Shown: piece after piece, positions 15,284 to 38,684 of the stretch | Numbering within the stretch: position 1 is the first letter of the stretch | Layout: each line of letters opens with the position of its first letter | NCBI GenBank assembly: GCA_964564685.1 | Contig: CAZMBC010000002.1 | Location: forward strand, 71,170 to 135,169 | Length of the DNA: 64,000 nucleotides | Reading direction: 5' to 3' | DNA from: an uncultured Christensenella sp. | GTDB taxonomy: Bacteria > Bacillota > Clostridia > Christensenellales > UBA1242 | Position numbers and translations under genes: made by a program | The notes under the pieces: generated by a model | Seen by the model: the letters and a program-made list of their open reading frames with translations, nothing else | Databases searched by the model: none | What the model was told of the DNA's origin: nothing

Positions 15284-15320
15284 CAAAAATTACTTGCTAG
15301 TTAATGGCAAGTAATTTTTG
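15284..15320. terminator. 14-bp perfect inverted repeat overlapping the stop of the HTH gene; probable terminator between convergent genes
   Basis: CAAAAATTACTTGC-N9-GCAAGTAATTTTTG. Confidence 0.65.
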
Positions 15321-15617
15321 TTGTATTGATTTTTGCAATTCTTTGTTTTTTATGTGGCTTGTAACGGTTATTAACGTCATTTTCTCTTGAACAGTAAAAA
15401 ACATATTGTTAAGTTTAAAAGTGTTGTAAATTGAAATTCCACCACCTTTGCCACATTTTGTTTCAATTGGAATCCCGCAGGAATCAAGAATAAACGTGTA
15501 GCGATAGATTGTACGAGTTGAAACGCAAAATTTGCTGGCAAGCTCGTTTGCTGAAACTGTGCCACGATGGAGCAGTGTTAGTATTATGCCCAAAAGAATA
15601 TCTAATTTTAATTTCAT
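15297..15617 (-). CDS. YafY/YobV-like winged HTH protein lacking WYL/WCX domains
   Basis: VSANELASKFCVSTRTIYRY...GIPIETKCGKGGGI matches the YafY N-terminus; ends at 106 aa; RBS GAGGTGG. Confidence 0.8.
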   Translation of the reverse strand: MKLKLDILLGIILTLLHRGTVSANELASKFCVSTRTIYRYTFILDSCGIPIETKCGKGGGISIYNTFKLNNMFFTVQEKMTLITVTSHIKNKELQKSIQQKLLAIN

Positions 15618-15646: not shown

Positions 15647-15686
15647 AGTATAACACAAATTTTTATATTAATCAAACAAATGTTCG
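15647..15686 (-). promoter_or_regulatory. Sigma-A promoter with a LexA-type SOS box overlapping the -35
   Basis: Minus strand: TTGATT-N17-TATACT (extended TG); CGAAC-ATTT-GTTTG at 15686-15673. Confidence 0.65.
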
Positions 15687-23119: not shown

Positions 23120-25861
23120 TTATTTATTTGAGTTATTCGTTTTGCGATTGCGATTAGATTTGTTTTTTAAACTATCACCGCTCATAAGTTTAGCGTCATC
23201 TTCGTCATTTTGGGGTTGTTTCTTTTTATACGTTATATAGAAAGCAATAACAGCAACTAAAAGTAGAATTGATATGCAGAACATTATAATAGTTACTACA
23301 AAACCACTGGAAAGCCCGTCCATTTTAATATATTGTGTTTTTACATATCCCTCGTGTTGGTTGTGCTCAGAATCTATAAACGAAACAAGAGTATAAGCAT
23401 GATTTTTGTCGTAATCCTTAACATAAATTTTTTGACCATTTTGTAGTGGAATGCGCTCAACATCTTCTGCGTCACTAGCTGTATCGTACATATAAGCAAA
23501 TTCACTATGGTCCAAAATTCTTATAGTGGCATTAGTTTCTAGTTTGCCCGATGAAACAATACTTTTGGTTACATCACCATTATATACATAGCCGTAGCGG
23601 TTACCAAGTTTAACAATATAATAAAAGGAATCTTGTCCCTCTAAACAGCCGTTATAAATGCCTACTGCGGTAAATACTGACCCTATGTCAATAGTATCGG
23701 AAACAATATTACTTGCAATAGTAGGGTATTTGTAAATGCTAACATCTTTGTTGTTTGCGCGTAGTTTATATTCTTGTACTGTATAGCTAGTTGGCTCTAT
23801 AGCTATTTGTGTAGGAGTAACATAACCAATCTCAAGTTTGTTATTCATAATATACCCAATACGCACAAATTCTGTGGCTTGAGTGATGTGCTCTTGTAAA
23901 ACAAGTGCAACAATGTTTGAGTTGCCAGTGTAAACAAAGTCCCCTTTAAAGTTAACTGTACTATAAATAAATGAGTTTTGCGTAATTGTGCCATAAGATA
24001 ATACATTTTCCCAACAGGTTATACTGTTTATAATTTCATATTGGTGTGGAAAATCACTTAAACCCTTACTGAATTGCAAATCAGTTATTGTTTGCAAGCA
24101 ACTTTTTCCGGTGTTAAATGCGTAAATTGTGCCCGTTGCTGGGTTTAGACTAAAGGTGCTGCAAGTGCATTTTGTATCAAGCGTATCAAAGGTTGGGGTA
24201 GATGTTAATGCGCTTTTGATAATGTTGTTGTTTACAAGCGCAAATACATTGTTTGAATAGTCTATTTCAAAAGTATCCACATTTTCAGTAAAGGATAAAC
24301 TAACAATTGAATCAACAACGCCATAGTTACTGGCAGGAGAGTTATCTTCGTTAACTAATAAGCGATATATAGTATTATCAACACTTATATATATCATGTT
24401 GTCTATTTCCGAATATCTAATAACCGAATTAAGATTGGCGGTTGCGCCCGTAATTTCAGTTATAATTGGTTCAGATGTGTACTCGGTGTATACTAATATC
24501 TCGTTTGTAGCATAATTTAGTGCATATAACTTTCCGCTGTTGTCCATGCAAAGGCTGTTAACCTGTTTTGGAACTTCTATGCTGTTAAATAAAGTGTTGT
24601 TGTATAGGCCATTGCTATAACTTAATCCATTTATATTTTGTTTTAAGCCATCCTGACTTTCGCTTAGGTAAATAAGGTTATTATTGTTATCTAGTATCAA
24701 GTTGCTTGGAGTATATACATTGTTTATTGCTGTTATTTGTGTTTCGTTAGCTCTGTTAATTATCTGCAAGCGGTTGTTATTATAATCGCTGACAAAAATA
24801 TACTTATCATTTTTAAGTGCAATAGAGTTTACGCCATCAAATCTACCAACGCTGTTGCCTTTGCCGGCTAGCATAACACTTGAAGCAGATAATCCAATAG
24901 AAGCGTCATCCTCATCTACATATAGCATGGAAGATTGGATGTTATTATGTGTTTGGTTATAGCTGTATACAACATTGTTTGAGCTATCTAAAATTATAGG
25001 ATTTCCATAATCGTTTTTATTTGCTATTTGGTTAAAGCCAGAGTCAAATAAATATAAATTATTGTTATCACATGCAAGGAAATAGTAGGATTGTCCATTA
25101 AATTGCAAGGTATCTAAACTATTTAAATTAAATTCCTCATTCTTTAAAAACTCGCTTGTGGTATGGTTGTTTTCTATTGTATCACCGGTAAAAATGTAGT
25201 TTCTAATAACTTCATCATTACCGTAAGTAAATACATAATCATTGCTAATGGCAATTTGTTGTATGGTGTAATTTATGCTAATACTTTTACTGGTGTAATC
25301 ACTATAGTCAGTAACATCTGTAAATTGAGTTATATAAATAATATTTTCCGTTTGGCCATAAACATTGGATATGCTAGCAACATAATAATTTGTACCGTCA
25401 AAACATATGTCATAGGGTGTATTAATGGTGTTTGTTATACCTGAAACTGAAGAAACATAAAGGTCGTTTACATATACAGGTGTTTCGTTGGTGTTAACTG
25501 CATATATTTTAACCTTAAGCTTTTCATGTACAAGCAAATAGCCGTTTACAAACTTAACCGAATGTACTTCGTTTGAAAAAGTAAGCAAGTGTGTTAGTTG
25601 TTGATTGTTAAAGTTATAACCATACAGTTTGTAATCAGAGGTGTCAGTTAGAACAAAGTACATTTGTGATGTGGTTGCAAAGCAAAAACTCTTCATTCCT
25701 GTAAGGTCAACATAATCCATAATTCCGTCTGGTAAAATTGTTTCATAAACCGCGTTTGAAACCGGCGATTCGTCTTCTGCCATAACAGAGTGGGTGGCAG
25801 GAAATAGTGTTGCAATTGCTAATATAACTAATGTAATTAAACCAAATTTAAACTTTTTCAT
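23120..25861 (-). CDS. Large exported, C-terminally membrane-anchored protein (beta-propeller/NHL-like repeats plus SH3-like domains)
   Basis: Signal peptide; NHL-like GRFDGVNSIAL...IFVSDYNNNRLQI; SH3-like ends GYVYNGDV, EGYVKTQYI; C-terminal TM plus basic tail; RBS before ATG 25861. Confidence 0.75.
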   Translation of the reverse strand: MKKFKFGLITLVILAIATLFPATHSVMAEDESPVSNAVYETILPDGIMDYVDLTGMKSFCFATTSQMYFVLTDTSDYKLYGYNFNNQQLTHLLTFSNEVHSVKFVNGYLLVHEKLKVKIYAVNTNETPVYVNDLYVSSVSGITNTINTPYDICFDGTNYYVASISNVYGQTENIIYITQFTDVTDYSDYTSKSISINYTIQQIAISNDYVFTYGNDEVIRNYIFTGDTIENNHTTSEFLKNEEFNLNSLDTLQFNGQSYYFLACDNNNLYLFDSGFNQIANKNDYGNPIILDSSNNVVYSYNQTHNNIQSSMLYVDEDDASIGLSASSVMLAGKGNSVGRFDGVNSIALKNDKYIFVSDYNNNRLQIINRANETQITAINNVYTPSNLILDNNNNLIYLSESQDGLKQNINGLSYSNGLYNNTLFNSIEVPKQVNSLCMDNSGKLYALNYATNEILVYTEYTSEPIITEITGATANLNSVIRYSEIDNMIYISVDNTIYRLLVNEDNSPASNYGVVDSIVSLSFTENVDTFEIDYSNNVFALVNNNIIKSALTSTPTFDTLDTKCTCSTFSLNPATGTIYAFNTGKSCLQTITDLQFSKGLSDFPHQYEIINSITCWENVLSYGTITQNSFIYSTVNFKGDFVYTGNSNIVALVLQEHITQATEFVRIGYIMNNKLEIGYVTPTQIAIEPTSYTVQEYKLRANNKDVSIYKYPTIASNIVSDTIDIGSVFTAVGIYNGCLEGQDSFYYIVKLGNRYGYVYNGDVTKSIVSSGKLETNATIRILDHSEFAYMYDTASDAEDVERIPLQNGQKIYVKDYDKNHAYTLVSFIDSEHNQHEGYVKTQYIKMDGLSSGFVVTIIMFCISILLLVAVIAFYITYKKKQPQNDEDDAKLMSGDSLKNKSNRNRKTNNSNK

Positions 25862-26073
25862 AATTCCTCTTTTTATCATATGCAATTATTATAGATATAA
25901 TATTTTTATATGTATTATAACAAAATAGTTTATAAAACGGCAACGAATAACCAATTATTTATAAAAATAATTATTGAAAATAAAAGTAAATTTTAAAACT
26001 AGGCATATTTTAAATTTTTTTTAAACAACTTTTAAACTATGACAGACAGTTGTCAAAATAAGTGATATATAAT

Positions 26074-26087
26074 CGAACAAACGTTCT
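26074..26087. promoter_or_regulatory. LexA (DinR/Cheo) SOS box
   Basis: CGAAC-AAAC-GTTCT is a perfect GAAC-N4-GTTC, directly after TATAAT at 26068-26073. Confidence 0.7.
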
Positions 26088-26155
26088 AAAAAATTAGAAC
26101 AAAAACATATTTTGTACAAAAATAATATTTTTTTACAAAAATTTGGCATAAGCCT

Positions 26156-26184
26156 TTGACTTTTAATATTTACAAAAATATAAT
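26156..26184 (+). promoter_or_regulatory. Near-consensus sigma-A promoter for the activator-like gene
   Basis: TTGACT-N17-TATAAT; RBS AGGAGG before ATG 26213. Confidence 0.7.
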
Positions 26185-26212
26185 AGGGTAAAAGTAGCAT
26201 TTAGGAGGGAAA

Positions 26213-26764
26213 ATGGAAATACTATGTAAAACAATTTTATCGGTGTATAAATATCTTGGGGCGATATCGGGGGCGATAGATAATTTGGTTATTAAAAAGA
26301 GTGTAAACTCTTCGTTTTATAACAATGGAAGGTTTAGTAGTGCATATGACTGTGCAAACGAGATTATGGAATTAACTGACCGCAAAGTTAACTTAATTAA
26401 CCTAAAGGTATTAACCGAGGATTGCTTAATGGAGCTTCAGCCATTGGAGCGTAAGGTGCTTTCGCTTTTATTTTTGGATAATGTAAAGCGCGAAAGTATA
26501 TGTGAGGTGCTGGAAATTTCTACGCGCACATTTTTTAGAAAAAGAAACGAAGGGATTGTTGCTTTTGAAAAATCTTTGTGTAGGCGGGGATATAACAAAG
26601 AAAAAATATTAGCCATGTTCGAAAAAGAAAAATGGCTAATTAATTTATACAAAAAAAATGGCGGAGTTATAGGACAAAATAGCCCGCTGTTCTATTCAAA
26701 TAGCAACGATTTTAGATTTATTAATAATATCATGAAAGGCTATGTTATGGCAAATGCAAACTAA
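26213..26764 (+). CDS. RinA/ArpU/Xpf-like transcriptional activator (sigma region-4-type HTH)
   Basis: LQPLERKVLSLLFLDNVKRESICEVLEISTRTFFRKRNEG resembles the C-terminal HTH of phage late activators; position ahead of packaging genes. Confidence 0.6.
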   Translation: MEILCKTILSVYKYLGAISGAIDNLVIKKSVNSSFYNNGRFSSAYDCANEIMELTDRKVNLINLKVLTEDCLMELQPLERKVLSLLFLDNVKRESICEVLEISTRTFFRKRNEGIVAFEKSLCRRGYNKEKILAMFEKEKWLINLYKKNGGVIGQNSPLFYSNSNDFRFINNIMKGYVMANAN

Positions 26765-27513
26765 AGTCGTTCGTCAATTTCGGTTATATCATATTTTTGT
26801 GATTGTTTTATAGTTTTTTTGGGTTTTGGTTTACGATAAAGTAAAAATATTATCACAAAAGTAGGCAAGCTTAAAATTACAATTGTTAGCGCAGTTTCAC
26901 CATCACTTAATGGGTTGATTATAGAGTCGTAATCGTCACTTGTGTAGGATAGTTGTTCTGCATTTGGGAATATAGTGTTTATAAATGAAATGTATTCATT
27001 ATAAATGTAGCCTTTTGTGCCTAAATATTCCACATAGTACCATATGTTGTCATCAAAGTCGCCAATTTGTTCGCCGTATGTCATGCCAATAAAGGTAAGA
27101 CCGCTATAATTGCTGGGCACAATCGAAATAGTATTGTTTTCCTTTGTTGGCGTTTCGCGCAGATAGCAATTTTTGTTATATGTGGTAAGCTTTATATTGT
27201 TTGGGTAAGGTGTTTCTGGAGCTCCATTCACTTTTTTAACCTTATCTTTTTCAATATATCCGCTTGTTCCATTATAATTTACTTTATACAAGCTTTCGTT
27301 ATATGATGAAAGGATTTCTACATAATATGTGTTTTCAGCAACGCATATTATGTTTTTTATAGCCTGATTAACCTCAGGTGTGCGATATAAGTATGCCCCC
27401 TTAAAGGTAACCTGTGCCCATGTGCCATCTTTTGCAAAGGCTACTGATATTGGATTAGTACATATGGATAGGTAAATCACAAAACAAACTATACCATAAA
27501 CAAATTTTTTCAT
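26761..27513 (-). CDS. Exported two-SH3-like-domain protein with C-terminal TM anchor
   Basis: Signal peptide; LYKVNYNGTSGYIEK and WYYVEYLGTKGYIY SH3b-like motifs; TM followed by RKPKPKK. Confidence 0.75.
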   Translation of the reverse strand: MKKFVYGIVCFVIYLSICTNPISVAFAKDGTWAQVTFKGAYLYRTPEVNQAIKNIICVAENTYYVEILSSYNESLYKVNYNGTSGYIEKDKVKKVNGAPETPYPNNIKLTTYNKNCYLRETPTKENNTISIVPSNYSGLTFIGMTYGEQIGDFDDNIWYYVEYLGTKGYIYNEYISFINTIFPNAEQLSYTSDDYDSIINPLSDGETALTIVILSLPTFVIIFLLYRKPKPKKTIKQSQKYDITEIDERL

Positions 27514-27587
27514 ACTTTAATTATAAATTAAAAGTTAAAATTTATAACGTAAAAAATGTGTCTTATATTGCTTAAAAAAGGAGGGTT

Positions 27588-29042
27588 TTGGCAAACGGGA
27601 TAGATATGAGAAAAAAAGAGATAGAACGGCGTTTGGAACAGGTGGAAAAGCAGATTAGATACAAAAAAGAAAATTGTCGTTTAGAAACCTATAACACGGG
27701 TAACAAGGTGCATTTAAAACAACTTATGTTCCACAAATGTCAAAAAAGAAACAGGTGGGTTTTTGGCGGAAACCGAAGCGGAAAAACCGAGTGTGGCGCG
27801 GTGGAAACAATTTGGTTGGCGCGAGGGATACACCCGTTTAGACCAAACAAACCTGACATAAGCTGTTGGGTGGTCTCGCTTTCTACACAGGTACAAAGAG
27901 ATGTGGCTCAAAGCAAAATTTTATATTACTTAAACAAAGATTGGATAGTGGATATTATTATGCTTTCGGGTAAAAAATCCTCTGCAAAAATGGGCGTAAT
28001 AGATACCATATTAATTAAAAATGTATTTGGCGGAGTAAGTAAAATTGGCTTTAAAAGTGTTGACCAAGGTCGCGAAAAATTTCAAGGAACGTCGCTTGAC
28101 TTTGTGTGGTTTGACGAAGAACCGCCCTACGATATTTATACCGAATGTAAAATGCGTGTTATTGATAAGGATGGAGAAATATTTGGAACAATGACACCAC
28201 TTAAGGGACTGACATGGGTGTATCACACAATATATTTAAACGAAAGCAACTCACCTGAAAACTGGTACATCCAAATGGAGTGGAACGACAATCCGTTCTT
28301 AAGCAAAAAAGACTTAAAGGAACTAGAAAATTCTTTAAGCGAGGAGGAATTAAATGAACGAAAACTTGGTTTATTTTCTGGCCATAGCGGGCTTGTTTAT
28401 AGCGAATTTAATGAATGTGTTAATGTTATAGAACCTTTTAATGTGCCCAAAGAATGGTACGACAAAATATCAATTGACCCTGGTTTTAAAAACCCTTTGA
28501 GCGCACACTGGTATGCGGTGGATTTTGATGGCAATGTGTATGTGATTGCCGAGCATTACGAAAAAGATAAAACTATTGAATATCACGCCCAAAAAATTTT
28601 GGAAATTTGCGATCGCTTGGGCTGGCACCGTAATTATAGTGGAAAGGTGGAGGCACTTATTGATAGCGCGGCAAATCAGCGTACTTTGGCAAGTGTGAAA
28701 AGTGTATCCGAACTATTTTTTGAACTAGATATTGCTGTTAACCCTAATGTTAATAAGGACTTGTTTACAGGAATTCAGCGTGTTAAAAGTTATTTTAAAA
28801 ACGCGCAAGGCAAGTCACGACTTTTTATATTTAAAAATTGTCCAAATCTTATTAGAGAAATTAAAGGCTACTTTTGGAACAAGGATGATGTGCCTTTTAA
28901 AAAGGATGACCATGCTTTAGATGAGCTAAGGTATTACATAATGTCAAGACCAGAAAACGCCCCTAAAAAACCCGAAAAAACTGCTGTTCAAAAAGATAAA
29001 GAACGACTATATAAAGCAATAAAATATTCTAACAGATATTAG
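27588..29042 (+). CDS. Terminase large subunit
   Basis: Walker A GGNRSGKT, Walker B VWFDEE, coupling motif TMTP, RNase H-like nuclease SIDPG...DSA...DHALDELRY. Confidence 0.93.
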   Translation: MANGIDMRKKEIERRLEQVEKQIRYKKENCRLETYNTGNKVHLKQLMFHKCQKRNRWVFGGNRSGKTECGAVETIWLARGIHPFRPNKPDISCWVVSLSTQVQRDVAQSKILYYLNKDWIVDIIMLSGKKSSAKMGVIDTILIKNVFGGVSKIGFKSVDQGREKFQGTSLDFVWFDEEPPYDIYTECKMRVIDKDGEIFGTMTPLKGLTWVYHTIYLNESNSPENWYIQMEWNDNPFLSKKDLKELENSLSEEELNERKLGLFSGHSGLVYSEFNECVNVIEPFNVPKEWYDKISIDPGFKNPLSAHWYAVDFDGNVYVIAEHYEKDKTIEYHAQKILEICDRLGWHRNYSGKVEALIDSAANQRTLASVKSVSELFFELDIAVNPNVNKDLFTGIQRVKSYFKNAQGKSRLFIFKNCPNLIREIKGYFWNKDDVPFKKDDHALDELRYYIMSRPENAPKKPEKTAVQKDKERLYKAIKYSNRY

Positions 29043-29049
29043 GTGGCAA

Positions 29050-29355
29050 ATGAAAAAAAAGTTAAAAAAATTGAATGAAGCGCTGTACAAAAAGGCGCTA
29101 GGTTATACTGCGGAGGAAATTAGTGAAGAGTATAGTTTGGTGGATAATGAGCTTGTGCTTTCCAAGCGCAAACTTAACACAAAAAACTATCCACCCGACC
29201 TTAACGCCTTGCAGTTTCTTTTGGGCGAACTAGAGGGTAAAGAAGAAAATGTGTACGAAAACTTTAGTTTAGAGGAGCTTGAGCAAGAGCGAAAGCGCTT
29301 GCGTGAACTGCTAGATAAAGGTGCAACCTCTGCGGGATTTAATCAAACTGAATAA
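29050..29355 (+). CDS. Terminase small subunit-like protein with no N-terminal HTH
   Basis: EALYKKALGY...KNYPPDLNALQFLL resembles the oligomerisation core of HTH-type phage TerS; the motif starts at about residue 10. Confidence 0.55.
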   Translation: MKKKLKKLNEALYKKALGYTAEEISEEYSLVDNELVLSKRKLNTKNYPPDLNALQFLLGELEGKEENVYENFSLEELEQERKRLRELLDKGATSAGFNQTE

Positions 29356-29364
29356 GGAGAAAAT

Positions 29365-29577
29365 ATGAAAATTGAGGAAATAACCTACAAGATATGTTGT
29401 GATATGCCTGGATGTGAAAACTTGGCAAAATACAGCCTGTTTAACACTAAGTCCAAAGGTGATGCATGCATTAACATGTGTGCAGATTGTGTAAGACAAC
29501 TATACGAAAACATAGGGGCGTTTTTGGTGCCCAAAAGTCCAAAAAATATATTAAACAACAATACAAAAAAGAGGTAA
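29365..29577 (+). CDS. Small Cys-rich, putative Zn-binding protein
   Basis: CDMPGC...CADC; good RBS AAGGAG. Confidence 0.6.
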   Translation: MKIEEITYKICCDMPGCENLAKYSLFNTKSKGDACINMCADCVRQLYENIGAFLVPKSPKNILNNNTKKR

Positions 29578-29579
29578 TT

Positions 29580-31457
29580 ATGACAGAATTAAACAATGAA
29601 TTATCAAATGATAAAATGCTTGTTCATGAGGTGTTAGAAGATTTTAAACAGCGCCAAATAAACAAACGCGCATTTGAAAGCACTTGGCAGTTAAACATCA
29701 ACTTTTTGCTAGGAAATCAGTATTGCTTTTTAAATGGAAAAAATGACCTTATAGATGAGAAAAAACAGTTTTTTTGGCAGGAGCGAGAAGTGTTTAACCA
29801 CATTGCACCAATTGTGGATTTGCGTATGTCCAAGCTGGCAAAAATTCGTCCTGCACTAACAATCGTGCCTTTTAGTGATGACCCAAAGGATATTGCTTGT
29901 GCAAAGGTAAGCAAAAATCTTATTAAGTCAATTTCATATGATTTAAATCTAAATAGCATTATTGCAAAAGCAACCATGTGGAGTGAAATTACTGGCACAT
30001 CTTTTTACAAAGTAAGTTGGAATGCGCAAAAAGGTCGTTTGGTTTCTTATGACGAAAATGGAGCACCTGTTTATGAGGGCGAAGCAGAAATAACAGCCGT
30101 ATCGCCATTTGAAATTTATCCCGACAGCAACACATATAGTCAGGTGGATGATTGCAAAAGCATTATTCACGCAAGGGCTTATCAGGTAGATGAAATTAAA
30201 AATATTTGGGGAGTAGATGTAAAGGGTGATGACATTGATGTGTTCTCGCTTGAAAGTATTACAAATCTTGGTGGGTTAGGATATCAGGCTAGCGCTACAA
30301 GTGTAGGCAAAAAAATGCAGAAAAACCATGCAGTTGTTATTGAACGCTATGAAGCCCCTAGTGTTGAATTCCCTAATGGGCGATTGGTTATTGTGGCGGG
30401 TGAGCGCCTTATACATGTTGGCGAATTGCCATACGAAAACCAACTTAACTCAAAACGCGGTTTCCCGTTTATAAAACAATGCTGCTTGCCAGTTCCAAAT
30501 TCGTTTTGGGGAACAAGTATCATAGAACGCTGTATACCCGTTCAGCGCGCATACAATGCAGTTAAAAATCGTAAACACGAATTTTTAAACCGTATTTCAA
30601 TGGGAGTTTTGGCTGTTGAGGATGGTTCGGTTGATATTGAAAATTTGGAAGACGAAGGATTGTGTCCTGGCAAAATTTTGGTGTATAGACAAGGTGCTAC
30701 ACAACCTAAAATGCTTGCTTCCGAAACCATCCCTGCTTCGTTCGAAAACGAGGAAGATAGGCTACTAGAGGAGTTTTTAAACATAAGCGGGGTAAGTGAT
30801 ATGCTAACCAATCACACAATCAGAACGGGAAATATAAGTGGTGTTGCACTTCAGTTGCTTATGGAACAAGACGAGGAGCGTATTTTAACAAGTGCGGACG
30901 AAATAAAGTCTGGCGTTAAAGAAATTGCAAAACACATATTGCGACTTTATAAGCAATTTGCAGTTATTCCGCATACTTCACGCTTGGTGGGTGAAAATGG
31001 TGGAATTGAGATGTTCTATTGGAAAAATTCGGACATCACAAGTGAAGATGTTGTATTTGAAACTGAGAACGAACTAACGCAAACAGTCACACAAAAACGT
31101 TCCTTTATTTACGACCTTTTAAACACAGGTTTGCTACAAGACGAAAGTGGAAAAATGACAAATTCTACCAAACAAAAAGTGCTTGAACAGCTAGGATTTG
31201 GTATTTGGGATAATACGCAGGATTTGCGTAGTTTGCAAACAAATAGAGCAAATGATGAAAATTACAACTTGATTAAAACACATGAAATTAATGCGCCAAT
31301 GGAAATTGATGACCATAATATTCACATAAACGAGCACGTATGTTTTATGTTAGGAAAAGAGTTTGAAAAGGCGGTCAAGCACAATCCTGACATTCAACAA
31401 ACTATGCTAGCTCATATTCGCGAACATAAAAAATGCAACAATCAAAATCATGAATAA
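29580..31457 (+). CDS. Phage portal protein (P22/T7-like size)
   Basis: ~625 aa, follows terminase; FNHIAPIVD, FWGTSIIE, ISGVAL motifs; RBS GAGGT before ATG 29580. Confidence 0.82.
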   Translation: MTELNNELSNDKMLVHEVLEDFKQRQINKRAFESTWQLNINFLLGNQYCFLNGKNDLIDEKKQFFWQEREVFNHIAPIVDLRMSKLAKIRPALTIVPFSDDPKDIACAKVSKNLIKSISYDLNLNSIIAKATMWSEITGTSFYKVSWNAQKGRLVSYDENGAPVYEGEAEITAVSPFEIYPDSNTYSQVDDCKSIIHARAYQVDEIKNIWGVDVKGDDIDVFSLESITNLGGLGYQASATSVGKKMQKNHAVVIERYEAPSVEFPNGRLVIVAGERLIHVGELPYENQLNSKRGFPFIKQCCLPVPNSFWGTSIIERCIPVQRAYNAVKNRKHEFLNRISMGVLAVEDGSVDIENLEDEGLCPGKILVYRQGATQPKMLASETIPASFENEEDRLLEEFLNISGVSDMLTNHTIRTGNISGVALQLLMEQDEERILTSADEIKSGVKEIAKHILRLYKQFAVIPHTSRLVGENGGIEMFYWKNSDITSEDVVFETENELTQTVTQKRSFIYDLLNTGLLQDESGKMTNSTKQKVLEQLGFGIWDNTQDLRSLQTNRANDENYNLIKTHEINAPMEIDDHNIHINEHVCFMLGKEFEKAVKHNPDIQQTMLAHIREHKKCNNQNHE

Positions 31458-31469
31458 AAAGAGGATAAG

Positions 31470-32108
31470 ATGGAAGAAATACAAAAATTAAATGGAGAAC
31501 AACCACAAGACAACGGCTCTACTGCAACGGCAGAATTTGACGAAATAGCATCGGCGTCAGAAGGCTCTCCATTAGGTAAATTTAAAGATGCCAACAGCCT
31601 GCTTAACGCGTATAACAACTTGCAAAGCGAGTTTACAAAAAAGTGCCAAAAGTTAAGCGAGTTGGAAAAGCTTGGGATGCGTGATAATGCTTCTGAAGAT
31701 GTTTCGGAAACACCATGCTATCTTAAGGAAGATTGGCATAGCACTTTGGCGGAGTTTTTAAACACCCATAAAAGTGCAAAGGTGTTTGTAAACGAAATTG
31801 CAGAGGAAATTAGTAAAGATAAGGTTTTGGCATGTGGCAAAAACCCCTTGAATATTGCTTATGCAAAAGTTTTGGACAAACACTACAAAACAAATGAGGA
31901 ACTGTTTAAAGATGACAAATTTTTGAATGAATATCTTAAAAACAACCCTCAAATTGTTAACGACATTGTTAAAAAATATTTAGCTGAACTGCCAAAAACT
32001 CCACGAGTTATGGCGGAAACACGAGGATGCGCAACTACGCTTACGCCAGCAGTTCAACCTAAAGATTTAAATGAGGCAATGAGTATGGCACAACTTTTAT
32101 TTAAATAA
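31470..32108 (+). CDS. Capsid scaffolding protein
   Basis: Acidic N-terminus, LLNAYNNLQSEFTKKCQKLSELEK coiled coil, C-terminal helix; lies between portal and capsid. Confidence 0.7.
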   Translation: MEEIQKLNGEQPQDNGSTATAEFDEIASASEGSPLGKFKDANSLLNAYNNLQSEFTKKCQKLSELEKLGMRDNASEDVSETPCYLKEDWHSTLAEFLNTHKSAKVFVNEIAEEISKDKVLACGKNPLNIAYAKVLDKHYKTNEELFKDDKFLNEYLKNNPQIVNDIVKKYLAELPKTPRVMAETRGCATTLTPAVQPKDLNEAMSMAQLLFK

Positions 32109-32124
32109 TTTATAAGGAGAAAAT

Positions 32125-33315
32125 ATGGTAACATTAGACACCGCAGATAAAGCGTTAAAAACAGTATATTTGGGCGTTATTTCCAACCAACTAAATGTAA
32201 ATACAAACCCTTTATTTGCAAAAATTAAACAATCTTCTACCTATGTAACAGGTAAGGAAGTAAGAAAAGTTGCACCTTTTGGTATCAATGGCGGTATTGG
32301 TGCAGGTGCAGAAGATGGACCGCTTCCTTTAGCAGGCGGAAACAACTATGTTCAATTTGTTAGCCAACTTAAAAACTTGTATGGAACAATTGAAATTTCG
32401 GATAAGGCAATACGAGCAAGCCAAAACAACGCTGGCGCATTCGTAAATCTTTTAAATGCTGAAATGGAAGGCCTTATCAAAGCAAGCGCTTATAACTTTA
32501 GCAGAATGCTTTATGGAAACGGCTCGGGCTTTTTAGCAGAATTAACATCTGCAGCATCAAGTAGTTCAGCACAAAGTGAAGTTGTAACAGTTGATAGTGT
32601 TCAGAACTTAATTGAAGGTATGACAGTTGATGTTATAGACTCTACAGATAATAGCAAATTGTATGGTGGTTTAAGAATTGTTTCTATTAACAAAACCAAT
32701 AAACAAGTAACATTAAACAAAAAAATCTATGTAGCAGATGTGTCAGATGGCGGTTTTAAACTTACTGTTCAAAACTCTCTTATGAACGAGATTACAGGTA
32801 TTGAAGCGTTGTTTGACCCAACAGTATCTACTTTGTACGGAGTTTCTAAATCAAGCAATCCTTGGTTAACCCCTTATACAAAAACAAACGCAGGAGCAAT
32901 TAGCGACGCGTTAATTCAAACAGCAATTGACGAGTTAGACGAAAATGTTGGTAGTGATATTGACTTTATTTCTTGTTCAAGTGCAGTTAAACGTGCTTAC
33001 CAAACCTATTTAAGCACATATCGCAGAAATATTGATACAATGGAGCTTAATGGTGGTTTTAGAGCAATAAGCTATGGTGGAATTCCTATCATGAGCGATC
33101 GCTTTGTTGGTGGCCAAAATATGTTGCTTTTAAATACCAAAGAGTTTACATTGCATCAGCTTTGCGATTGGCAATGGTTGGAAGGTGATGACGGTTCCGT
33201 TCTAAAACAAAAAGCAGGCTACCCAGCATATACCGCAACCCTTGTAAAATATGCCGAATTAATTTGCGATAAACCATCTGGTCAAGGCAAAATAAGTGGC
33301 ATTACTATTTCTTAA
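32125..33315 (+). CDS. Major capsid protein (HK97 fold)
   Basis: 396 aa; KNLYGTIEISDKAI, RMLYGNGSG, SYGGIPIMSDRF, LVKYAELICDKP; position after scaffold. Confidence 0.85.
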   Translation: MVTLDTADKALKTVYLGVISNQLNVNTNPLFAKIKQSSTYVTGKEVRKVAPFGINGGIGAGAEDGPLPLAGGNNYVQFVSQLKNLYGTIEISDKAIRASQNNAGAFVNLLNAEMEGLIKASAYNFSRMLYGNGSGFLAELTSAASSSSAQSEVVTVDSVQNLIEGMTVDVIDSTDNSKLYGGLRIVSINKTNKQVTLNKKIYVADVSDGGFKLTVQNSLMNEITGIEALFDPTVSTLYGVSKSSNPWLTPYTKTNAGAISDALIQTAIDELDENVGSDIDFISCSSAVKRAYQTYLSTYRRNIDTMELNGGFRAISYGGIPIMSDRFVGGQNMLLLNTKEFTLHQLCDWQWLEGDDGSVLKQKAGYPAYTATLVKYAELICDKPSGQGKISGITIS

Positions 33316-33330
33316 TAGAAAACAATATAT

Positions 33331-33360
33331 GGGGTAAGTTTATTCTTGCCCCTTTATTTT
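33331..33360 (+). terminator. Intra-operon terminator or stabilising hairpin after the capsid gene
   Basis: GGGGTAAG-TTTATT-CTTGCCCC-TTTATTTT. Confidence 0.65.
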
Positions 33361-33373
33361 TAAAGGAGGAGTT

Positions 33374-33754
33374 ATGAAAATTCTAATACAAAACGATATG
33401 TTTAATATCGCTAAACGATTAAAAAATATAGACAGTGATTATTTTGTTTTGTTTAATACAAAAAACAAAAAATTCGAGTTGCACAACTCTGCACAGGGTA
33501 AAAGCACCTATTGCTTAACTTTTCCTTTTGACACACTGGATGCGCGTGCTATTGAGCACACCTTTAAAACTAGTGTACGAAACTCCAGTAAGATTTTTTT
33601 TGAGATTGAAGAAACAAATAATAAAATTGAAACAGCGCAAAACGAAAAAATTTTAGACGAATGTAAATGTATTTTTAAGGATATATACAATTATTCTAAC
33701 GCCCACACAAAAGATTTTGATGTGGAAGATATATATAAAAACAAATGGATTTAA
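33374..33754 (+). CDS. Phage-module hypothetical protein
   Basis: 126 aa, strong RBS AAGGAGGAG, inside the morphogenesis operon. Confidence 0.65.
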   Translation: MKILIQNDMFNIAKRLKNIDSDYFVLFNTKNKKFELHNSAQGKSTYCLTFPFDTLDARAIEHTFKTSVRNSSKIFFEIEETNNKIETAQNEKILDECKCIFKDIYNYSNAHTKDFDVEDIYKNKWI

Positions 33755-33768
33755 AAAAAGGAGAAAAT

Positions 33769-34329
33769 ATGACTGTAAAACAAATAATAACGGATGTTGC
33801 ATACTTACTGGATGATAACCGATTGCTTACTGCAATTAATACAGATAATTTTGCTGGACACTTACAAAATGAACAAAACCTTTTAGTAAAATGTGTAAAT
33901 TTTGTCAATAACATTATAGCAACTGACTACTTTCCCCTTATTTCTAGCAAAAAACTGCTAACAAATGTAAATACTGTGCCATTTTCAGACATAACAAAAT
34001 CAACTATTTTTGACATCTTGCAAGTAAAAGACGATTACGGATATGTTACGCCGTTTAAGGTTACTAATGAAGGAGTAGAAACTGTTAAAGGCAATATCAC
34101 AATTAAGTATGCATATTTGCCAGAAGATGTAACTTACGATTCAAGTATAACAGCTTATCCTATTAAAATTAACACACGTATTTTTGCCTACGGAGTTGCA
34201 AGTGAATACTTGTTTATAAAAGGCAATTACGATGATGGTGAAATCTGGGAAGAACGTTTTAAAAATGCAATGAAAGCCTTGCAAAGAACACGAAAAAATG
34301 TTGTTATGCCTAAAAGAAGGTGGAAATAA
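33769..34329 (+). CDS. Putative head-tail adaptor (T7 gp11/P22 gp4-like role)
   Basis: ~186 aa; C-terminal YGVASEYL...WEERFKNAM helical pattern; position after capsid; RBS before ATG 33769. Confidence 0.55.
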   Translation: MTVKQIITDVAYLLDDNRLLTAINTDNFAGHLQNEQNLLVKCVNFVNNIIATDYFPLISSKKLLTNVNTVPFSDITKSTIFDILQVKDDYGYVTPFKVTNEGVETVKGNITIKYAYLPEDVTYDSSITAYPIKINTRIFAYGVASEYLFIKGNYDDGEIWEERFKNAMKALQRTRKNVVMPKRRWK

Positions 34330-35825
34330 TGATTGGCAAGGAAGGTGGTAAAAAATTAAAATACAAGCTTTTTAACTATGCAAATTTTGAAGCAGGAATT
34401 AATACTGACATTGACGAGAATATTATTCCTATGAATGTTTCTACAAATTCATACAATTTTTCATATAAAAATGGTGCGCTAACCACTGGAATGGGTGTTG
34501 GCGACCTTAAAATACGATATGACTTAACTGACGAAGAAAAAATAAGGGGTATAAGATATCCTGAAGATGTGGAACTTTTAACAATATGGAACTATGAAAA
34601 TTATTTTTCTGAAACTGAAACGCTTAGTAGATGGTTAATATTTTATGGTTCGGATAAACGCATTTACATGCATTACATGTATATTAATAGCGGAACTATT
34701 TTGCCACTATCTTCAACTTTGCAGGTAGAAAGCGTACCTAAATTTATGTTTTATCGTATTAATGGTGACCCTTATTATATTTTTATAACCAAGGATGCTG
34801 GCATGCAAGCTTACAATATGAGAAATCAGGCATTGCGAACTATAACAAATATTCCTACTATTAATAGTTATTGCATACATAATAACAGACTGTATGTAAC
34901 AGATGTGGACCATAAAAATCAGGTTTGGTATTCGCATGAAGATGACCCAACAAATTGGGCTATTAACAGTGATGATTCAGGAAGCATTGAATTTAAAGAT
35001 AGACGAGGAAATTGCTTAAAGGTTGTTGCATTTGAAGACTATGTATATGTGTTTAGAGAGTATGGCATTTCAAAAATTACCGCACACAAACAGCAAAGTG
35101 AACCACAAACCGAAAATATGTTTTTATCTAGTAATAGCATAAAAGGTGATACCGTTTGCGTATGCGGAGATAAGATATTGTTTATGACTACTGACGGCTT
35201 ATATTCATTTAACGGCAATACAGTTTCTAAAATTGAGGTAAAAGTAGAAAGTTTGCTGCGAAAAATTACCAAGTATTTATGTGCAGAATATCATAATAAT
35301 GCCTATTATTTGGCATGTAAAATTAACTTTGATGATAACAATTTAATTGGGTGTGAGAAAAATGGAGACTATACCACAAACGCATTATTGAAATTTGATT
35401 TAACAACAAATGAGCTGTCAATTTTAAGAGGCGTTGATATAACTTTTATGAATGCAATTAAGGAAATTAACCAAAACTTTTTAGCAGTTGTGATTAAAGA
35501 AAATGATGTTCATAAAATTGGTGTTATAGACGAATCTGGTAAAGTTTTTAATAATAATTTAGCGAAGTACTGGAAGTCGGGCTGTTGGGATTTTGATATG
35601 CCAAACAAGAAAAAATTATTTAAAAAGTTTTATATAAATTGCGAAAAAGATGCTACCATCACTTTTATTGTTGATGGACAAAAATATGTGTATGAAATTT
35701 TAGGTTCAGAAGATACTATTACTCTGTCGCCAAATTTAAGAGGATATAATTTATCGGTAGAAATATCTGCAAGTGATCCCGAAACAAAAATTTCTGCACC
35801 AAAAATTATGGTAGGTTATCTATGA
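34329..35825 (+). CDS. Putative tail nozzle/stabilisation protein (P22 gp10/T7 gp12-like beta-propeller)
   Basis: ~498 aa, beta-rich; HNNRLY, VWYSHEDDPTNW, YWKSGCWDFDMPNKKKLFKK; TAATG coupling to the adaptor. Confidence 0.6.
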   Translation: MIGKEGGKKLKYKLFNYANFEAGINTDIDENIIPMNVSTNSYNFSYKNGALTTGMGVGDLKIRYDLTDEEKIRGIRYPEDVELLTIWNYENYFSETETLSRWLIFYGSDKRIYMHYMYINSGTILPLSSTLQVESVPKFMFYRINGDPYYIFITKDAGMQAYNMRNQALRTITNIPTINSYCIHNNRLYVTDVDHKNQVWYSHEDDPTNWAINSDDSGSIEFKDRRGNCLKVVAFEDYVYVFREYGISKITAHKQQSEPQTENMFLSSNSIKGDTVCVCGDKILFMTTDGLYSFNGNTVSKIEVKVESLLRKITKYLCAEYHNNAYYLACKINFDDNNLIGCEKNGDYTTNALLKFDLTTNELSILRGVDITFMNAIKEINQNFLAVVIKENDVHKIGVIDESGKVFNNNLAKYWKSGCWDFDMPNKKKLFKKFYINCEKDATITFIVDGQKYVYEILGSEDTITLSPNLRGYNLSVEISASDPETKISAPKIMVGYL

Positions 35826-37024
35826 TTAGCGGTAAAGATTATGCTTCAATTGCCTATACAAAAAGCGTAAAACTAGAGAAGGATAAAATCATCCAAGATA
35901 ATTATTTATATGCTCAAAAAATTCAAAGATTTAATCTACCAAAAAGAAGTTTTTATCAAAGTTATTCTAAAGGTTTTTTACTACAGTGTGAAGAAGGTAG
36001 CTGTGCAAATATTCAAATTTTTGGTGAACTTGATAATGAAGTAACGCTAGAGTTATTAATAAATGATGTGCTTATATTATCACAAACAGGTGCAAAATTT
36101 AACATCATAGATAACGTTACTGTCAGTAATTTATGTAATATTGTCATTAAACTTACATCTGATACATCTAGAAAAATTTTAAATTTTGTGCTGAAAATTA
36201 ATGCAAAATTTAAAAATGGTGTAAAAAGTGATAAAAGAACGATAAAGGGCACAAGAAATTTTTTACTAGTTTTAAACAAACTAGATGGTGACATGTATTA
36301 TGATAAGTATGTTGATTTTGATTCATTTAAAAATGGAATAAAAACTAAATGTGGACTATTGCCATATGCAAATATAATTGATACTGATTATTGTATTGAT
36401 CCAACTAATGCTAATGCAGTTAAGCAAGAATGTTTTTTGTTAAAATCTGGTAGTGAATTGGATGTAAAAATTGGTGACTTGGTAAGTAATATATGTAATG
36501 TTAAAGTTGATGTTGCTTGTATCAGTTTTTTAAAAAGCTCAACTGATGCTTTGGTGCAAGTTATTTATAGCATAGATAATGTTATTACTGTTTGTGTTGT
36601 GAAATGTGATGGGACAATTGTTAATACTTACACAATAACACCAAGTGTTAAATCGCCAATTAAGTTAATCGGATCAATTGTTAACTCTTGCTCAAGCTAT
36701 GTTAATGGGTTTTATTTTCTTACAGCAAACAATGAAGTTTATTTGTGTGTTAGAAGTACAGACACAGGTGAATTTTGTACGCCATTTAAATGTGGCATGG
36801 GTGAGGATAGCATGGCTTTTATGGGTGAGAATAAACTATATCTGTTTACATATATGAATAACTGCTTAGACTTGCAAGTTTTTTCTGTAACAACAGATGA
36901 TGTATGCCAGGATATAACTCGCTATGGCGTTTATAAATATTACAATTGTCAGGAAGGCTTTGTTTATGATGGCAACATTTATGTAATTTGTGATGACATA
37001 GTTACGCAGGTGGAAATTGAATAG
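35822..37024 (+). CDS. Beta-rich, Cys-rich hypothetical protein, candidate tail appendage or receptor-binding protein
   Basis: 400 aa, ATGA overlap with the upstream gene; visibly AT-rich. Confidence 0.5.
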   Translation: MISGKDYASIAYTKSVKLEKDKIIQDNYLYAQKIQRFNLPKRSFYQSYSKGFLLQCEEGSCANIQIFGELDNEVTLELLINDVLILSQTGAKFNIIDNVTVSNLCNIVIKLTSDTSRKILNFVLKINAKFKNGVKSDKRTIKGTRNFLLVLNKLDGDMYYDKYVDFDSFKNGIKTKCGLLPYANIIDTDYCIDPTNANAVKQECFLLKSGSELDVKIGDLVSNICNVKVDVACISFLKSSTDALVQVIYSIDNVITVCVVKCDGTIVNTYTITPSVKSPIKLIGSIVNSCSSYVNGFYFLTANNEVYLCVRSTDTGEFCTPFKCGMGEDSMAFMGENKLYLFTYMNNCLDLQVFSVTTDDVCQDITRYGVYKYYNCQEGFVYDGNIYVICDDIVTQVEIE

Positions 37025-37868
37025 TATTGTTAAAGAAAATATTTTGCGGCAATATAAAAACTTTGTGGCAAGCTTTAACCATAAACAATTTTTAAAAAAT
37101 GGAGGAGGAAATATGCTTTCTAATTTAATTGATGAGCAAACATATAATGATGCACTTAATCTTGCTAAACAAAGTGAGGTAAGTGCAGATGTGCTTAATT
37201 TGGTTTCTGAAATACAAAACCTTGACAGCGCTTGCGAGGTAAAAGAACCAATTTTGCAAGTGGCAGAAAGTGAAGATATGACGGTCAGCAATGTTACTAC
37301 CGAGCCAACTGAGGAAACTCTTATGGAGATGAAGTGGCTTGAAGGCGCTTTGGAACTTAAAAACAAAACAATGCTTGAAAAAAATGAGTACAAGCGCTTT
37401 GAAGAGATTAATGCTAACATGACAAGAGAGTTAAATGGCATATATGTTGAAACAGAAACGCTTAAGAAAGCGCGTCAAGATGCACTAAACTCTTTTGATA
37501 TAGCTAAAGTGGTGGAAATTGATGAAAAGTTAAAAAAACTGAATGGACTGTACAGCGAGAAGCTAAAAGAAGCAGATGAACACAAAAAGCAAATTGTTAA
37601 CTATGAAAAAGAGTACGAAGAAAAATATAAAGAACTTGAGAACAGTTTGCAAAATACAAATTTTAATACGGACAAGGTTACTATTAACAAAGAGCACTTT
37701 GGAAACAAAGTTTTAAACGATTATAAAAGTAATAAAACGCTAGAACTTGTTAAAGGTTTTTTAAGCAACTACTCTAAAGAAACAGCAAAGCAAATTTTGC
37801 AAAATACCCCTGCGCTTATTGAGAGTTTGGGCGGAAAATATGCAGATTTGCTAAAAGAGTATGAATAA
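37017..37868 (+). CDS. Coiled-coil hypothetical protein, candidate internal virion/ejection protein
   Basis: E/K-rich helical sequence; position after tail genes. Confidence 0.5.
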   Translation: MNSIVKENILRQYKNFVASFNHKQFLKNGGGNMLSNLIDEQTYNDALNLAKQSEVSADVLNLVSEIQNLDSACEVKEPILQVAESEDMTVSNVTTEPTEETLMEMKWLEGALELKNKTMLEKNEYKRFEEINANMTRELNGIYVETETLKKARQDALNSFDIAKVVEIDEKLKKLNGLYSEKLKEADEHKKQIVNYEKEYEEKYKELENSLQNTNFNTDKVTINKEHFGNKVLNDYKSNKTLELVKGFLSNYSKETAKQILQNTPALIESLGGKYADLLKEYE

Positions 37869-38116
37869 TGTGGGAAAAAATATTTAACTTGGCAATTTCA
37901 AATGGAATATGGGCGGTCCTTTTTTTAGCATTGTTGGTATTTCAGCTAAAAGATAGCAGAACGCGCGAACAAAAATATCAGAAAACTATAGAAAACTTGT
38001 CGACCTCGTTGGAAGTGGTTAAGGATGTTAAGGAAGATGTAAGCGAAATTAAGGCGCATCTTAACATGGTTTCGCCAAAATCCGATGTTAAAACGGAGGT
38101 TGCGGATGAAAAATAG
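37868..38116 (+). CDS. BhlA/UviB-family holin-like protein
   Basis: LAISNGIWAVLFLALLVFQLKDSRTREQKYQKTIENL is the BhlA/UviB pattern. Confidence 0.8.
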   Translation: MWEKIFNLAISNGIWAVLFLALLVFQLKDSRTREQKYQKTIENLSTSLEVVKDVKEDVSEIKAHLNMVSPKSDVKTEVADEK

Positions 38117-38684
38117 ATTTAAGACTTATGGGTTTTGGATGTCGCTTTCTAGTGCAATTATAATTTTAATACAAAGTGTGGCATCGCTTTTTGGCTACGA
38201 ATTTCAAACTACATTAATAGAAAACATAATTATGGCAGTGTGTGGTGTATTGGTTGTGTTGGGTATTGTTAATAAGCCCGCGCAAACCGAGCCACTACAG
38301 AATGAAGAAACAACACAAGATAATTCTGGTGCGTCTGATGAAGTTAAGGAAACCTTTGAAGAAAACTTGATGTTTAAAACAACTGATGTAGAAATGCAAA
38401 CATGTTTGTTTAATGACAAAAATGAAGAACAAAGTACAATTCCAGATATGTTGGAAACTGTTGAAAACATAGCTAAAAGTGTAGTTTTGAACAATGAGTT
38501 GCAAGTTTTTAAAAAAGAACCTGAGGCCATTTCTGTTGTGGATAATGATAATAGTAAAAGTGAGACAAATCTAAAACAATCAGCACAAAATAATTGTTTT
38601 GAAAATGTATCTTCTAATAGCGATAATGATATTATGATTGCCGAGCGAGTTCGCGTAAGCGATTCTGACGAAAATTTTCACTAG
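38106..38684 (+). CDS. Phage holin-like protein (two TMs) with long acidic C-terminal tail
   Basis: NRFKTYGFWMSL...LVVLGIVNKP resembles phiLC3-type holins; ~130-aa acidic low-complexity tail; RBS GGAGG before ATG 38106. Confidence 0.6.
   Translation: MKNRFKTYGFWMSLSSAIIILIQSVASLFGYEFQTTLIENIIMAVCGVLVVLGIVNKPAQTEPLQNEETTQDNSGASDEVKETFEENLMFKTTDVEMQTCLFNDKNEEQSTIPDMLETVENIAKSVVLNNELQVFKKEPEAISVVDNDNSKSETNLKQSAQNNCFENVSSNSDNDIMIAERVRVSDSDENFH

Follow-up and report, generated by a model that had tools for sequence, protein, structure and literature searches.

The subject of this report is the control region of a small activator gene that heads a phage-like capsid module in an uncultured Christensenella sp. 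(Bacillota; Clostridia; Christensenellales). The window, meaning the whole stretch of DNA that was analyzed, comprises 64,000 nucleotides (GenBank assembly GCA_964564685.1, contig CAZMBC010000002.1, positions 71,170 to 135,169 of the forward strand). The activator gene is followed by an antisense gene for an SH3-domain protein and then by the large terminase gene, TerL, at the start of the structural and lysis genes. The results presented here reveal that a LexA-type box upstream of the activator gene is a selected element in one clade of related loci, which may place the module under the control of the host DNA damage response. Direct reading of positions 25700–26900 recovered all of the motifs described in an initial annotation that had been made from the sequence alone. 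The elements of the region are listed below, where P1 and P2 denote the two putative promoters of the activator gene.

23120–25861, minus strand: gene for a divergent, secreted, beta-propeller-like protein of 913/921 aa.
26040–26055, plus strand: palindrome TGACA-N6-TGTCA, TGACAGACAGTTGTCA, 16 bp, a putative operator at about −40 to −25 relative to the putative P1 −10.
26068–26073, plus strand: TATAAT, putative −10 hexamer of the clade-specific upstream promoter P1.
26074–26087, plus strand: LexA-type (Cheo/SOS) box CGAACAAACGTTCT, with the core GAAC-N4-GTTC at 26075–26086, about −6 to +8 of the putative P1.
26083–26100, plus strand: inverted repeat GTTCTAA-AAAA-TTAGAAC, which amounts to an additional GAAC half-site beside the box.
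26110–26142, plus strand: direct repeats TTTTGTACAAAAAT (26110–26123) and TTTTTTACAAAAAT (26129–26142), 14 nt each and 19 nt apart, just 5′ of P2, as reported by a repeat tool.
26115, 26134 and 26171, plus strand: starts of three copies of TACAAAAAT, the third within the P2 spacer.
26144–26151, plus strand: TGGCATAA, an instance of the family-wide motif TG(A/G)CAYA, 4–6 nt 5′ of the P2 −35.
26156–26184, plus strand: P2, TTGACT-N17-TATAAT, a near-consensus sigma-A-type promoter (11/12 match).
26169–26179, plus strand: third repeat copy TTTACAAAAAT (11 nt), an exact copy of 26132–26142, in the P2 spacer.
26213, plus strand: activator start ATG, preceded by AGGAGG.
26213–26764, plus strand: gene for the activator, 183 aa, a late activator of the Ltr type (sigma-70 region-4/DUF1492 kind).

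In the window taken by itself, the GAAC-N4-GTTC core is not beyond chance: two matches are present where 0.41 are expected, and 9 of 100 shuffles contain at least two. The case for the box therefore rests on related loci. About 90 such loci (L001–L090) were compared together with the window. The 1.34 Mb of sequence contains 16 perfect boxes, 11 of which sit 138–171 nt 5′ of the activator start codon (the window, L001–L004, L009, L012, L013, L015, L046 and L051); four of the remaining five are inside open reading frames. One-mismatch boxes occupy the same position in L005, L007 and L011. The box is also kept in the closer relatives L083 (contig CBDSXJ010000001.1 of assembly GCA_965354795.1), L085 and L086 (75%, 67% and 60% activator identity, respectively). 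A register table of the 18 loci of the clade that carries the box reveals a rigid unit composed of TGACA-N6-TGTCA, 12 variable nucleotides, a hexamer, 0–1 nt and the 14-mer box. The box thus starts 0–1 nt after a conserved TATAAT or TAAAAT; the hexamer is TATAAT in 10/10 loci of sub-clade 1, to which the window belongs, and TAAAAT, TAGAAT or AAAAAT in sub-clade 2. Thirteen of the 18 boxes read GAAC-N4-GTTC, two read GAAC-N4-GTTT, two have a single arm mismatch and one (L006) is degenerate, such that GAAC-N4-GTT(C/T) is retained in 15 of the 18. The arms are constant across the clade, and the spacer varies (AAAC, AAAT, AGAT, ATAA, ATAT).

The palindrome shows a similar pattern. It is present in 17 of the 18 clade loci, always exactly 12 nt before the hexamer, with constant arms and a variable N6 core, 12-nt linker and flanks. 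The palindrome of L004 reads GGACA...TGTCC, a symmetric double change that fits the expectation for a dimer-bound site. The palindrome was not found in the approximately 60 distant loci, and neither it nor the box has a single occurrence in 161 kb of other intergenic DNA, which served as the background for enrichment. A scan of metagenome contigs for the composite palindrome-plus-box unit returned two further copies, both of the same element, and none ahead of other genes. The box is a selected cis-element, kept despite synonymous divergence (pS) that is saturated even between the two closest genomes (0.67–0.80).

Conservation in orthologous promoters had been proposed as a check on the box, and it is borne out at the same position in the 15 loci of one clade. 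The initial annotation also allowed that the box might regulate only the divergent 23120–25861 gene, which is now excluded. In sub-clade 2 the upstream neighbor is a co-directional surface-protein gene ending 300–340 nt upstream, with no divergent gene, and the distance from the unit to the activator gene is unchanged whether the upstream gene is divergent or co-directional. Conversely, L008, L045 and L081, outside the clade, keep the divergent beta-propeller gene yet lack the box. A minus-strand promoter for the divergent gene was also considered and is unconvincing, and sub-clade 2 does not have this gene. The inverted repeat next to the box is restricted to the window, L003 and L083 (GTTCTA-CAAAA-TAGAAC in the latter); it may be a weak secondary LexA site. 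Extra GAAC/GTTC half-sites are found close to the box in six loci, and those of L005 and L090 are GTTC half-sites in direct orientation.

The protein that binds the box is probably LexA. GAAC-N4-GTTC is the operator of Bacillus subtilis LexA, and GAACnnnnGTT(T/C) is the clostridial LexA operator (PMC4234289). In Firmicutes LexA operators this core usually comes with an A/T-rich spacer and C/A–G/T flanks. The reading of the box as a Firmicutes LexA-type operator is upheld by the match to these validated clostridial operators, as both CGAACAAACGTTCT and the clade variants have GAAC-N4-GTT(C/T) with an A/T-rich spacer. The variants include CGAACAAATGTTCT, AGAACATATGTTCT and AGAACAAATGTTTG. The last is the box of L007 and is identical to the Clostridioides difficile recA operator used in surface plasmon resonance assays (PMC4234289); the other boxes of the clade are close to it. 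The LexA motif is conserved across the Firmicutes phylum, and B. subtilis LexA binds sites predicted from gut metagenomes (PMC3998124). The only other intergenic LexA-like box of the window, CAAACAAATGTTCG at 15673–15686 with one core mismatch, lies between murG and a gene for a 106-aa HTH_11 regulator (15297–15617, minus strand).

The model favored here, with a probability of roughly 0.58, is that host LexA blocks the clade-specific P1, such that DNA damage would switch on the activator and a module resembling a gene transfer agent (GTA). Two tandem promoters, the clade-specific P1 and the family-wide P2, would drive the activator gene. P2 would be controlled through its flanking repeats, acting as operators for other factors and possibly for the activator itself. 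In the undamaged cell, host LexA on the box would block RNA polymerase at P1. DNA damage would activate RecA and lead to self-cleavage of LexA. P1 would then fire, with transcription passing through P2 into the activator gene. The activator would in turn activate the SH3 and TerL promoters, which are divergent, and might also act on P2, after which particles would be assembled and the holins would lyse the cell. P1 is probably a promoter, and the placement of the box appears to be the classic occluding position, like that of dinBox1 downstream of P1 in the Bacillus thuringiensis tectivirus GIL01.

Several observations weigh against control by LexA through P1. P1 has no canonical −35 element. 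TTGTCA is 12 nt and TGACA 23 nt from the hexamer, and at these spacings the palindrome arms were rejected as a −35. P1 would consequently need a palindrome-binding factor or be a −10-only promoter, or it may not be a promoter. The box is approximately 70 nt 5′ of the −35 of the near-consensus P2, out of reach of LexA occlusion, and if P2 is constitutive then LexA control is marginal. A transcript search found the sequence in three gut-metagenome DNA runs only and in no RNA run. The lexA, recA and uvr genes were not found in the window, in the 10 kb past its right end or in related loci, and none of the sequences examined contains a lexA, recA or uvr promoter against which to calibrate the LexA motif of the lineage. 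The pcrA-ligA operon, part of the LexA regulon in B. subtilis, has no box in the window (59.5–63.9 kb). In the TerL tree all box carriers group into a single monophyletic clade whose internal branches are long; its sister lineages have neither box nor palindrome. This distribution indicates a single gain followed by retention rather than repeated independent gains, so the count of 15/18 reflects retention after one origin. Finally, the box is absent from approximately 60 related, more distant loci, and LexA is therefore not essential for regulation of the element.

The missing −35 element favors an alternative in which LexA binds the box but P1 does not exist. LexA would then block read-through, loop or cooperate to modulate P2, or control a small unannotated transcript. 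Read-through is possible in sub-clade 2, where the upstream co-directional gene is long, and the half-sites near the box in six loci also favor this alternative. However, TATAAT stands directly 5′ of the box in all ten sub-clade-1 loci despite diverged surroundings, and this constancy is hard to account for unless the hexamer is a −10 element. Also against this alternative, positions 25500–27800 have no Rfam match and the region contains no strongly structured RNA (the folding of the putative P1 leader is unremarkable, z = −2.1). This alternative is unlikely. Alternatively, the box could be the selected operator of a protein other than LexA, such as a lineage-specific repressor, perhaps with a palindrome-binding factor, in which case the input would not be DNA damage. 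The box is always beside the palindrome at a fixed 12 + 6 nt, the composite unit is found nowhere else, and no SOS gene with the same box was found for calibration. On the other hand, the 14-mers hardly differ from clostridial operators to which LexA was shown to bind, down to the favored A/T-rich spacer. The motif is also conserved throughout the Firmicutes phylum, and no other regulator with GAAC-N4-GTTC specificity is known to us. A non-LexA operator is likewise considered improbable.

The model of LexA acting at P1 places P1 ahead of a second promoter that is common to the whole family. P2 is the top-ranked promoter-like site of the region in a promoter scan (11/12). Motif counts over 81 upstream regions of the family, compared to the intergenic background, revealed TTGAC[AT]-N16-18-TAnAAT in 68/81 (17-fold enrichment). 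The two repeats upstream of P2 are conserved across the family as T(G/T)TA(C)AAAA(A/T)T x2, and TTGTAAAAT occurs in 47 of the 81 regions (29-fold) in fixed position bins. TG(A/G)CAYA has 37 occurrences in one 20-nt bin (approximately ninefold). A sigma-54 reading of TGGCA-N-TTGAC 5′ of P2 was rejected: it does not agree with the GG/GC register, and TGACA stands at this place in many loci. The multi-operator region described in the initial annotation is thus partly retained: P2, the two repeats and TG(A/G)CAYA are conserved family-wide, whereas the third repeat and the inverted repeat are sporadic. The third TACAAAAAT is found in the window only, plus an 8-of-9 match in L085, and TACAAAAAT has 10 occurrences in the window against 5.45 expected. 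The third copy is probably not a general operator.

Outside the LexA-box clade, TGAYGKCA direct repeats take the place of the palindrome/TATAAT/box unit. Two to four copies (e.g., TGACGGCAAAGTGACGGCA) with an 11-bp period, 29-fold above background, are found approximately 110–160 nt before the activator start (L010, L014, L016, L018, L019, L024–L033, L040–L044 and L053–L077). TGTCGAA is also frequent outside the clade; seventeen loci have it approximately 160–180 nt 5′ of the activator start (10-fold above background, 12 occurrences in one 20-nt bin; e.g., L016, L025, L030–L032, L036, L040, L059, L063 and L077, and also L011 and L013), and TGTCG variants are also found upstream of TerL. TGTCGAA has the same sequence as the Spo0A "0A box" consensus, and it may serve as a Spo0A input or belong to a TGTC-type motif that the activator of the element binds. 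In six loci (L022, L048, L062, L065, L068 and L073) a conserved promoter approximately 190–210 nt upstream is followed by a long, G+C-richer conserved leader (GTAAAACGC...GCGCAGAGG...; region approximately 60–210 nt before the activator start). This group has a tRNA gene approximately 400 nt upstream on the opposite strand. A riboswitch in these leaders was rejected, as no Rfam family reaches threshold.

The activator was initially annotated as RinA/ArpU-like, and this assignment is not supported. No RinA or ArpU model was matched at E ≤ 0.01 in an NCBIfam scan, with both TIGRFAM models assumed to be present in the library; only weak matches to sigma70-ECF (18.3 bits) and SigB/F/G (16.5 bits) were returned. 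Instead, the protein is of the sigma-70 region-4/DUF1492 kind, which corresponds to the LtrA and LtrB branches of the same Ltr super-family. Pfam gave two matches only: that to DUF1492 is marginal (22.5 bits, cut-off 21.5), and that to Sigma70_r4_2 is sub-threshold (22.1 bits, cut-off 25.7). The protein also matches phrog_36, "transcriptional regulator" (1.8e-10), and a profile search against solved structures identified region 4 of SigW and SigF (E about 1e-3). An AlphaFold (AF2) model (mean local confidence, pLDDT, 82; predicted TM-score, pTM, 0.74) contains two long N-terminal helices, a sigma-4 helix-turn-helix (HTH) and C-terminal helices. The HTH of the model superposes on the −35-binding region 4 of SigL, SigE, SigF and SigD with a target-normalised TM of 0.76–0.87 and a root-mean-square deviation of 1–1.8 Å. 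Among viral folds, the closest are those of small phage proteins annotated as DUF1492, Sigma-70 r4 or transcriptional activator. Sigma70_r4 (LtrA) and DUF1492 (LtrB) proteins activate terS promoters, and binding of ArpU and LtrC to direct repeats upstream of terS was demonstrated by electrophoretic mobility shift assay (PMC3753634). Homologues of the activator fall into 67 protein clusters, and identity across loci falls to 33–55%.

The activator gene lies 5′ of TerL in 76/80 loci, always with one antisense SH3 gene between them. The trio of activator (+), SH3 (−) and TerL (+) is complete in 74/80, and the rest are mostly cut by contig ends. The remaining features of the element are as follows.

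26761–27513, minus strand: gene for an SH3_3-domain protein of 250 aa (SH3_3, 5.2e-09), a conserved member of the element, between the activator gene and TerL.
27514–27587, no strand: SH3–TerL divergent intergenic region, presumed activator-dependent late promoter, with CGTAAAAAATGTGTC at 27548–27562.
27588–38684, plus strand: structural and lysis module, from Pfam and PHROG matches.

The activator probably drives TerL transcription. (A/T)TTTGTC(T/A/G) is present 40–60 nt 5′ of TerL in 33/77 loci (sixfold above background), and TTTTGTA is enriched 6.8-fold upstream of TerL. L002–L004 have two TTTTGTA(G/A)AAA direct repeats upstream of TerL that resemble those 5′ of P2. These similarities suggest a single protein that binds upstream of both TerL and P2, and the activator is the simplest candidate. 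On the minus strand at 27514–27528, and at the equivalent place in most loci, a TATAAT or TAAAAT is only 6–7 nt before the SH3 ATG, which implies a leaderless or near-leaderless SH3 mRNA divergent from TerL. A terminator-like hairpin (14-bp stem with only three G-C pairs, plus a T-run) is located within the antisense SH3 gene, at 27320–27353 on the plus strand. Such a hairpin might end transcripts of the activator gene before they reach TerL.

The order of the module genes is TerL, a 101-aa TerS-like protein, a P22/SU10-like portal, a scaffold-like 212-aa protein, an SU10-like major capsid protein (MCP), an SU10-type adaptor, proteins of 501, 400 and 283 aa, a BhlA holin and a second holin. 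Genes for the holins, one BhlA-type and the other Phage_holin_1, occupy 37868–38684. No recognizable endolysin was found in the module; the only cell-wall candidates are the SH3_3 protein, which is weakly EntFM-like, and a 354-aa protein (38751–39815). No integrase, repressor or replication genes are among the module genes (26.2–38.7 kb). Housekeeping genes flank the module: murG, gyrB/gyrA-type topoisomerase genes and those for a polysaccharide deacetylase and SSB lie upstream, and that for RNase J lies downstream.

Relatives of the element are widespread. A profile scan of a one-genome-per-species collection identified 118 genomic relatives, 80 of which were taken as loci, and almost all of these 80 are gut Clostridia or Christensenellales-type metagenome-assembled genomes (MAGs). 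The synteny gyrB-gyrA-deacetylase-SSB-beta-propeller-activator-SH3-TerL is found in eight genomes (seven loci and L083). TerL shows 60–71% identity among the 80 loci, a level of conservation equal to that of gyrB and gyrA, and the TerL tree has long branches. In a search that returned 6,312 protein clusters with MCP, the best 120 of the 6,312 were all at least 60% identical. Relative to L083, with pS saturated, nonsynonymous divergence (pN) is 0.066 for TerL, 0.090 for the portal and 0.110 for MCP, and the gyrase genes give 0.051 (gyrB) and 0.085 (gyrA). Purifying selection on the structural genes matches that on gyrase in strength. A free-phage counterpart was sought and rejected. The best TerL match among 50,697 deposited phages has 27–30% identity, and the activator has no match among them. 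Among 2.9 million IMG/VR contigs only two have a relative, namely L081, which is the same chromosomal locus, and L082, with the activator-SH3-TerL trio at its contig end.

The data fit a vertically inherited, domesticated phage-like element that appears to be functional and GTA-like, rather than a mobile or decaying prophage, and particles are probably made. An ordinary decaying prophage remnant, with the box a chance match or serving only the divergent 921-aa beta-propeller gene, is very hard to credit: the box is indeed insignificant in the window alone and the intergenic region is common to the divergent gene, but the box position is kept in 15/18 clade species, the box is present without the divergent gene and absent from sister lineages that have it, the structural genes show gyrase-like purifying selection with TerL conserved across 80 species-level genomes, and saturated synonymous divergence together with housekeeping synteny argues against recent horizontal copies. 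The initial annotation proposed that host LexA, together with other host inputs, has replaced the phage repressor switch and that the module is host-wired. The lack of repressor, integrase and replication genes and the housekeeping synteny agree with this proposal, whereas the LexA unit with P1 turns out to be a clade-specific addition ahead of the family-wide P2, with its other operators, and so not a simple exchange of one repressor.

The closest parallel to the predicted switch is found in GIL01 (PMC6182141, PMC4551915), which has no dedicated phage repressor and uses host LexA as the lysogeny repressor, a part that LexA may also play at the locus. In GIL01 an SOS box of the Firmicutes type directly follows an early promoter, P1 and P2 are in tandem, and late genes depend on a separate small activator, an arrangement that is also proposed for the locus. 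However, GIL01 is a replicating linear prophage with the LexA co-repressor gp7 and the LexA-like activator gp6, whereas the locus is a non-replicating chromosomal module with a sigma-4/DUF1492 activator, and no gp7- or gp6-like gene was recognized. The Ltr super-family (RinA, ArpU, LtrA, LtrB and LtrC; PMC3753634, PMC3152322) shares with the locus a small activator heading packaging, morphogenesis and lysis genes, a sigma-region-4-type HTH, a DUF1492 match and repeats upstream of the terminase gene. Phage ltr genes are controlled by cI (PMC3753634), in contrast to the LexA-type box on the activator's own promoter here. The locus also differs in its 183-aa activator, which has a long two-helix N-terminal part and a C-terminal extension, and in the antisense SH3 gene before TerL.

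PBSX of B. subtilis is a domesticated, SOS-inducible, non-replicating element with an Xre repressor, the sigma-like factor Xpf and holin-mediated lysis. Like PBSX, the locus would be a domesticated, SOS-inducible Firmicute phage-like element with holins and with late genes dependent on a small sigma-like factor. PBSX is myovirus-like and keeps Xre, whereas the locus is podovirus-like (P22/SU10 portal, SU10 MCP and adaptor), has no Xre-like gene and has the SOS box directly on the activator promoter. Other LexA-controlled phage-derived or lytic functions include the packaging operon of Staphylococcus aureus pathogenicity islands (SaPI), colicin and pyocin systems, and uviA-bcn of Clostridium perfringens. 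In these systems, as proposed for the locus, an SOS box controls either a packaging operon or a small gene for a sigma-like factor or activator, and lysis-linked release follows. However, their activator families and cargo are different, and none is known to be a vertically inherited capsid module in more than 100 species. UviA is a TcdR-family sigma factor (PMC4885068).

GTA-like particles were only recently demonstrated in human-gut Firmicutes, with the FpGTA of Faecalibacterium (PMC12946183). The same study, in which PBSX serves as a GTA-like reference, reported GTA-like packaging in gut Ruminococcaceae, Oscillospiraceae and Christensenellaceae; fragments of approximately 4–6 kb were packaged in Christensenellaceae MAGs, for which no gene cluster was identified, and no regulator, promoter or LexA link was described for FpGTA (PMC12946183). 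By its description, FpGTA resembles the locus as a compact (approximately 10–12 kb), podovirus-like TerL-portal-scaffold-MCP cluster that is chromosomal and widely conserved in gut Clostridia, has associated holin genes and has its genes split over several loci in some relatives. The gene order is different, as TerL precedes the small TerS-like gene at the locus. It is conceivable, as a tentative proposal to which we would give less than even odds, that the module is the cluster behind the packaging in Christensenellaceae. It would then represent an ancient podovirus-like system in hundreds of gut Clostridia species, in which the promoter of the master activator was repeatedly rewired (LexA/SOS here, TGAYGKCA arrays and the Spo0A-box-like TGTCGAA elsewhere) and in which the activator feeds back on itself.

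Each component of the locus is of a known kind. The literature searched contained no other case in which an Ltr-type activator stands at the head of a vertically inherited capsid module and has a LexA-type box directly on its promoter. The locus provides a concrete, testable switch, comprising a LexA-type operator, a second operator, an Ltr-type activator and a capsid module found in more than 100 gut species. If the model of LexA control is correct, DNA-damaging drugs, such as fluoroquinolones and metronidazole, or inflammation would trigger lysis and the release or transfer of DNA in an abundant uncultured gut lineage. The family is also a natural series in which the promoter of a single conserved element is rewired, useful for the study of how viral modules are domesticated under host control.

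Some genes of the element and its surroundings vary among the relatives. In some distant genomes, such as L033, the module is split, with ABC-transporter host genes between TerL and the TerS-like and portal genes. A 750–800-aa protein is encoded directly after TerL in the distant loci L011, L013, L019, L026, L033 and others, with a GLUG motif in L026. The 400-aa protein of the module (35822–37024) is 35% identical to its L083 counterpart, compared to 59–90% for the neighboring structural proteins, and no counterpart was detected in loci further away. The protein may be a fast-evolving receptor-binding or tail-fibre protein. The beta-propeller protein also evolves fast and is 46% identical to that of L083, compared to 85–93% for the products of adjacent housekeeping genes. 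Synteny of its gene with the element holds for sub-clade 1 as well as for L008, L045 and L081, and the protein may be functionally linked to the element.

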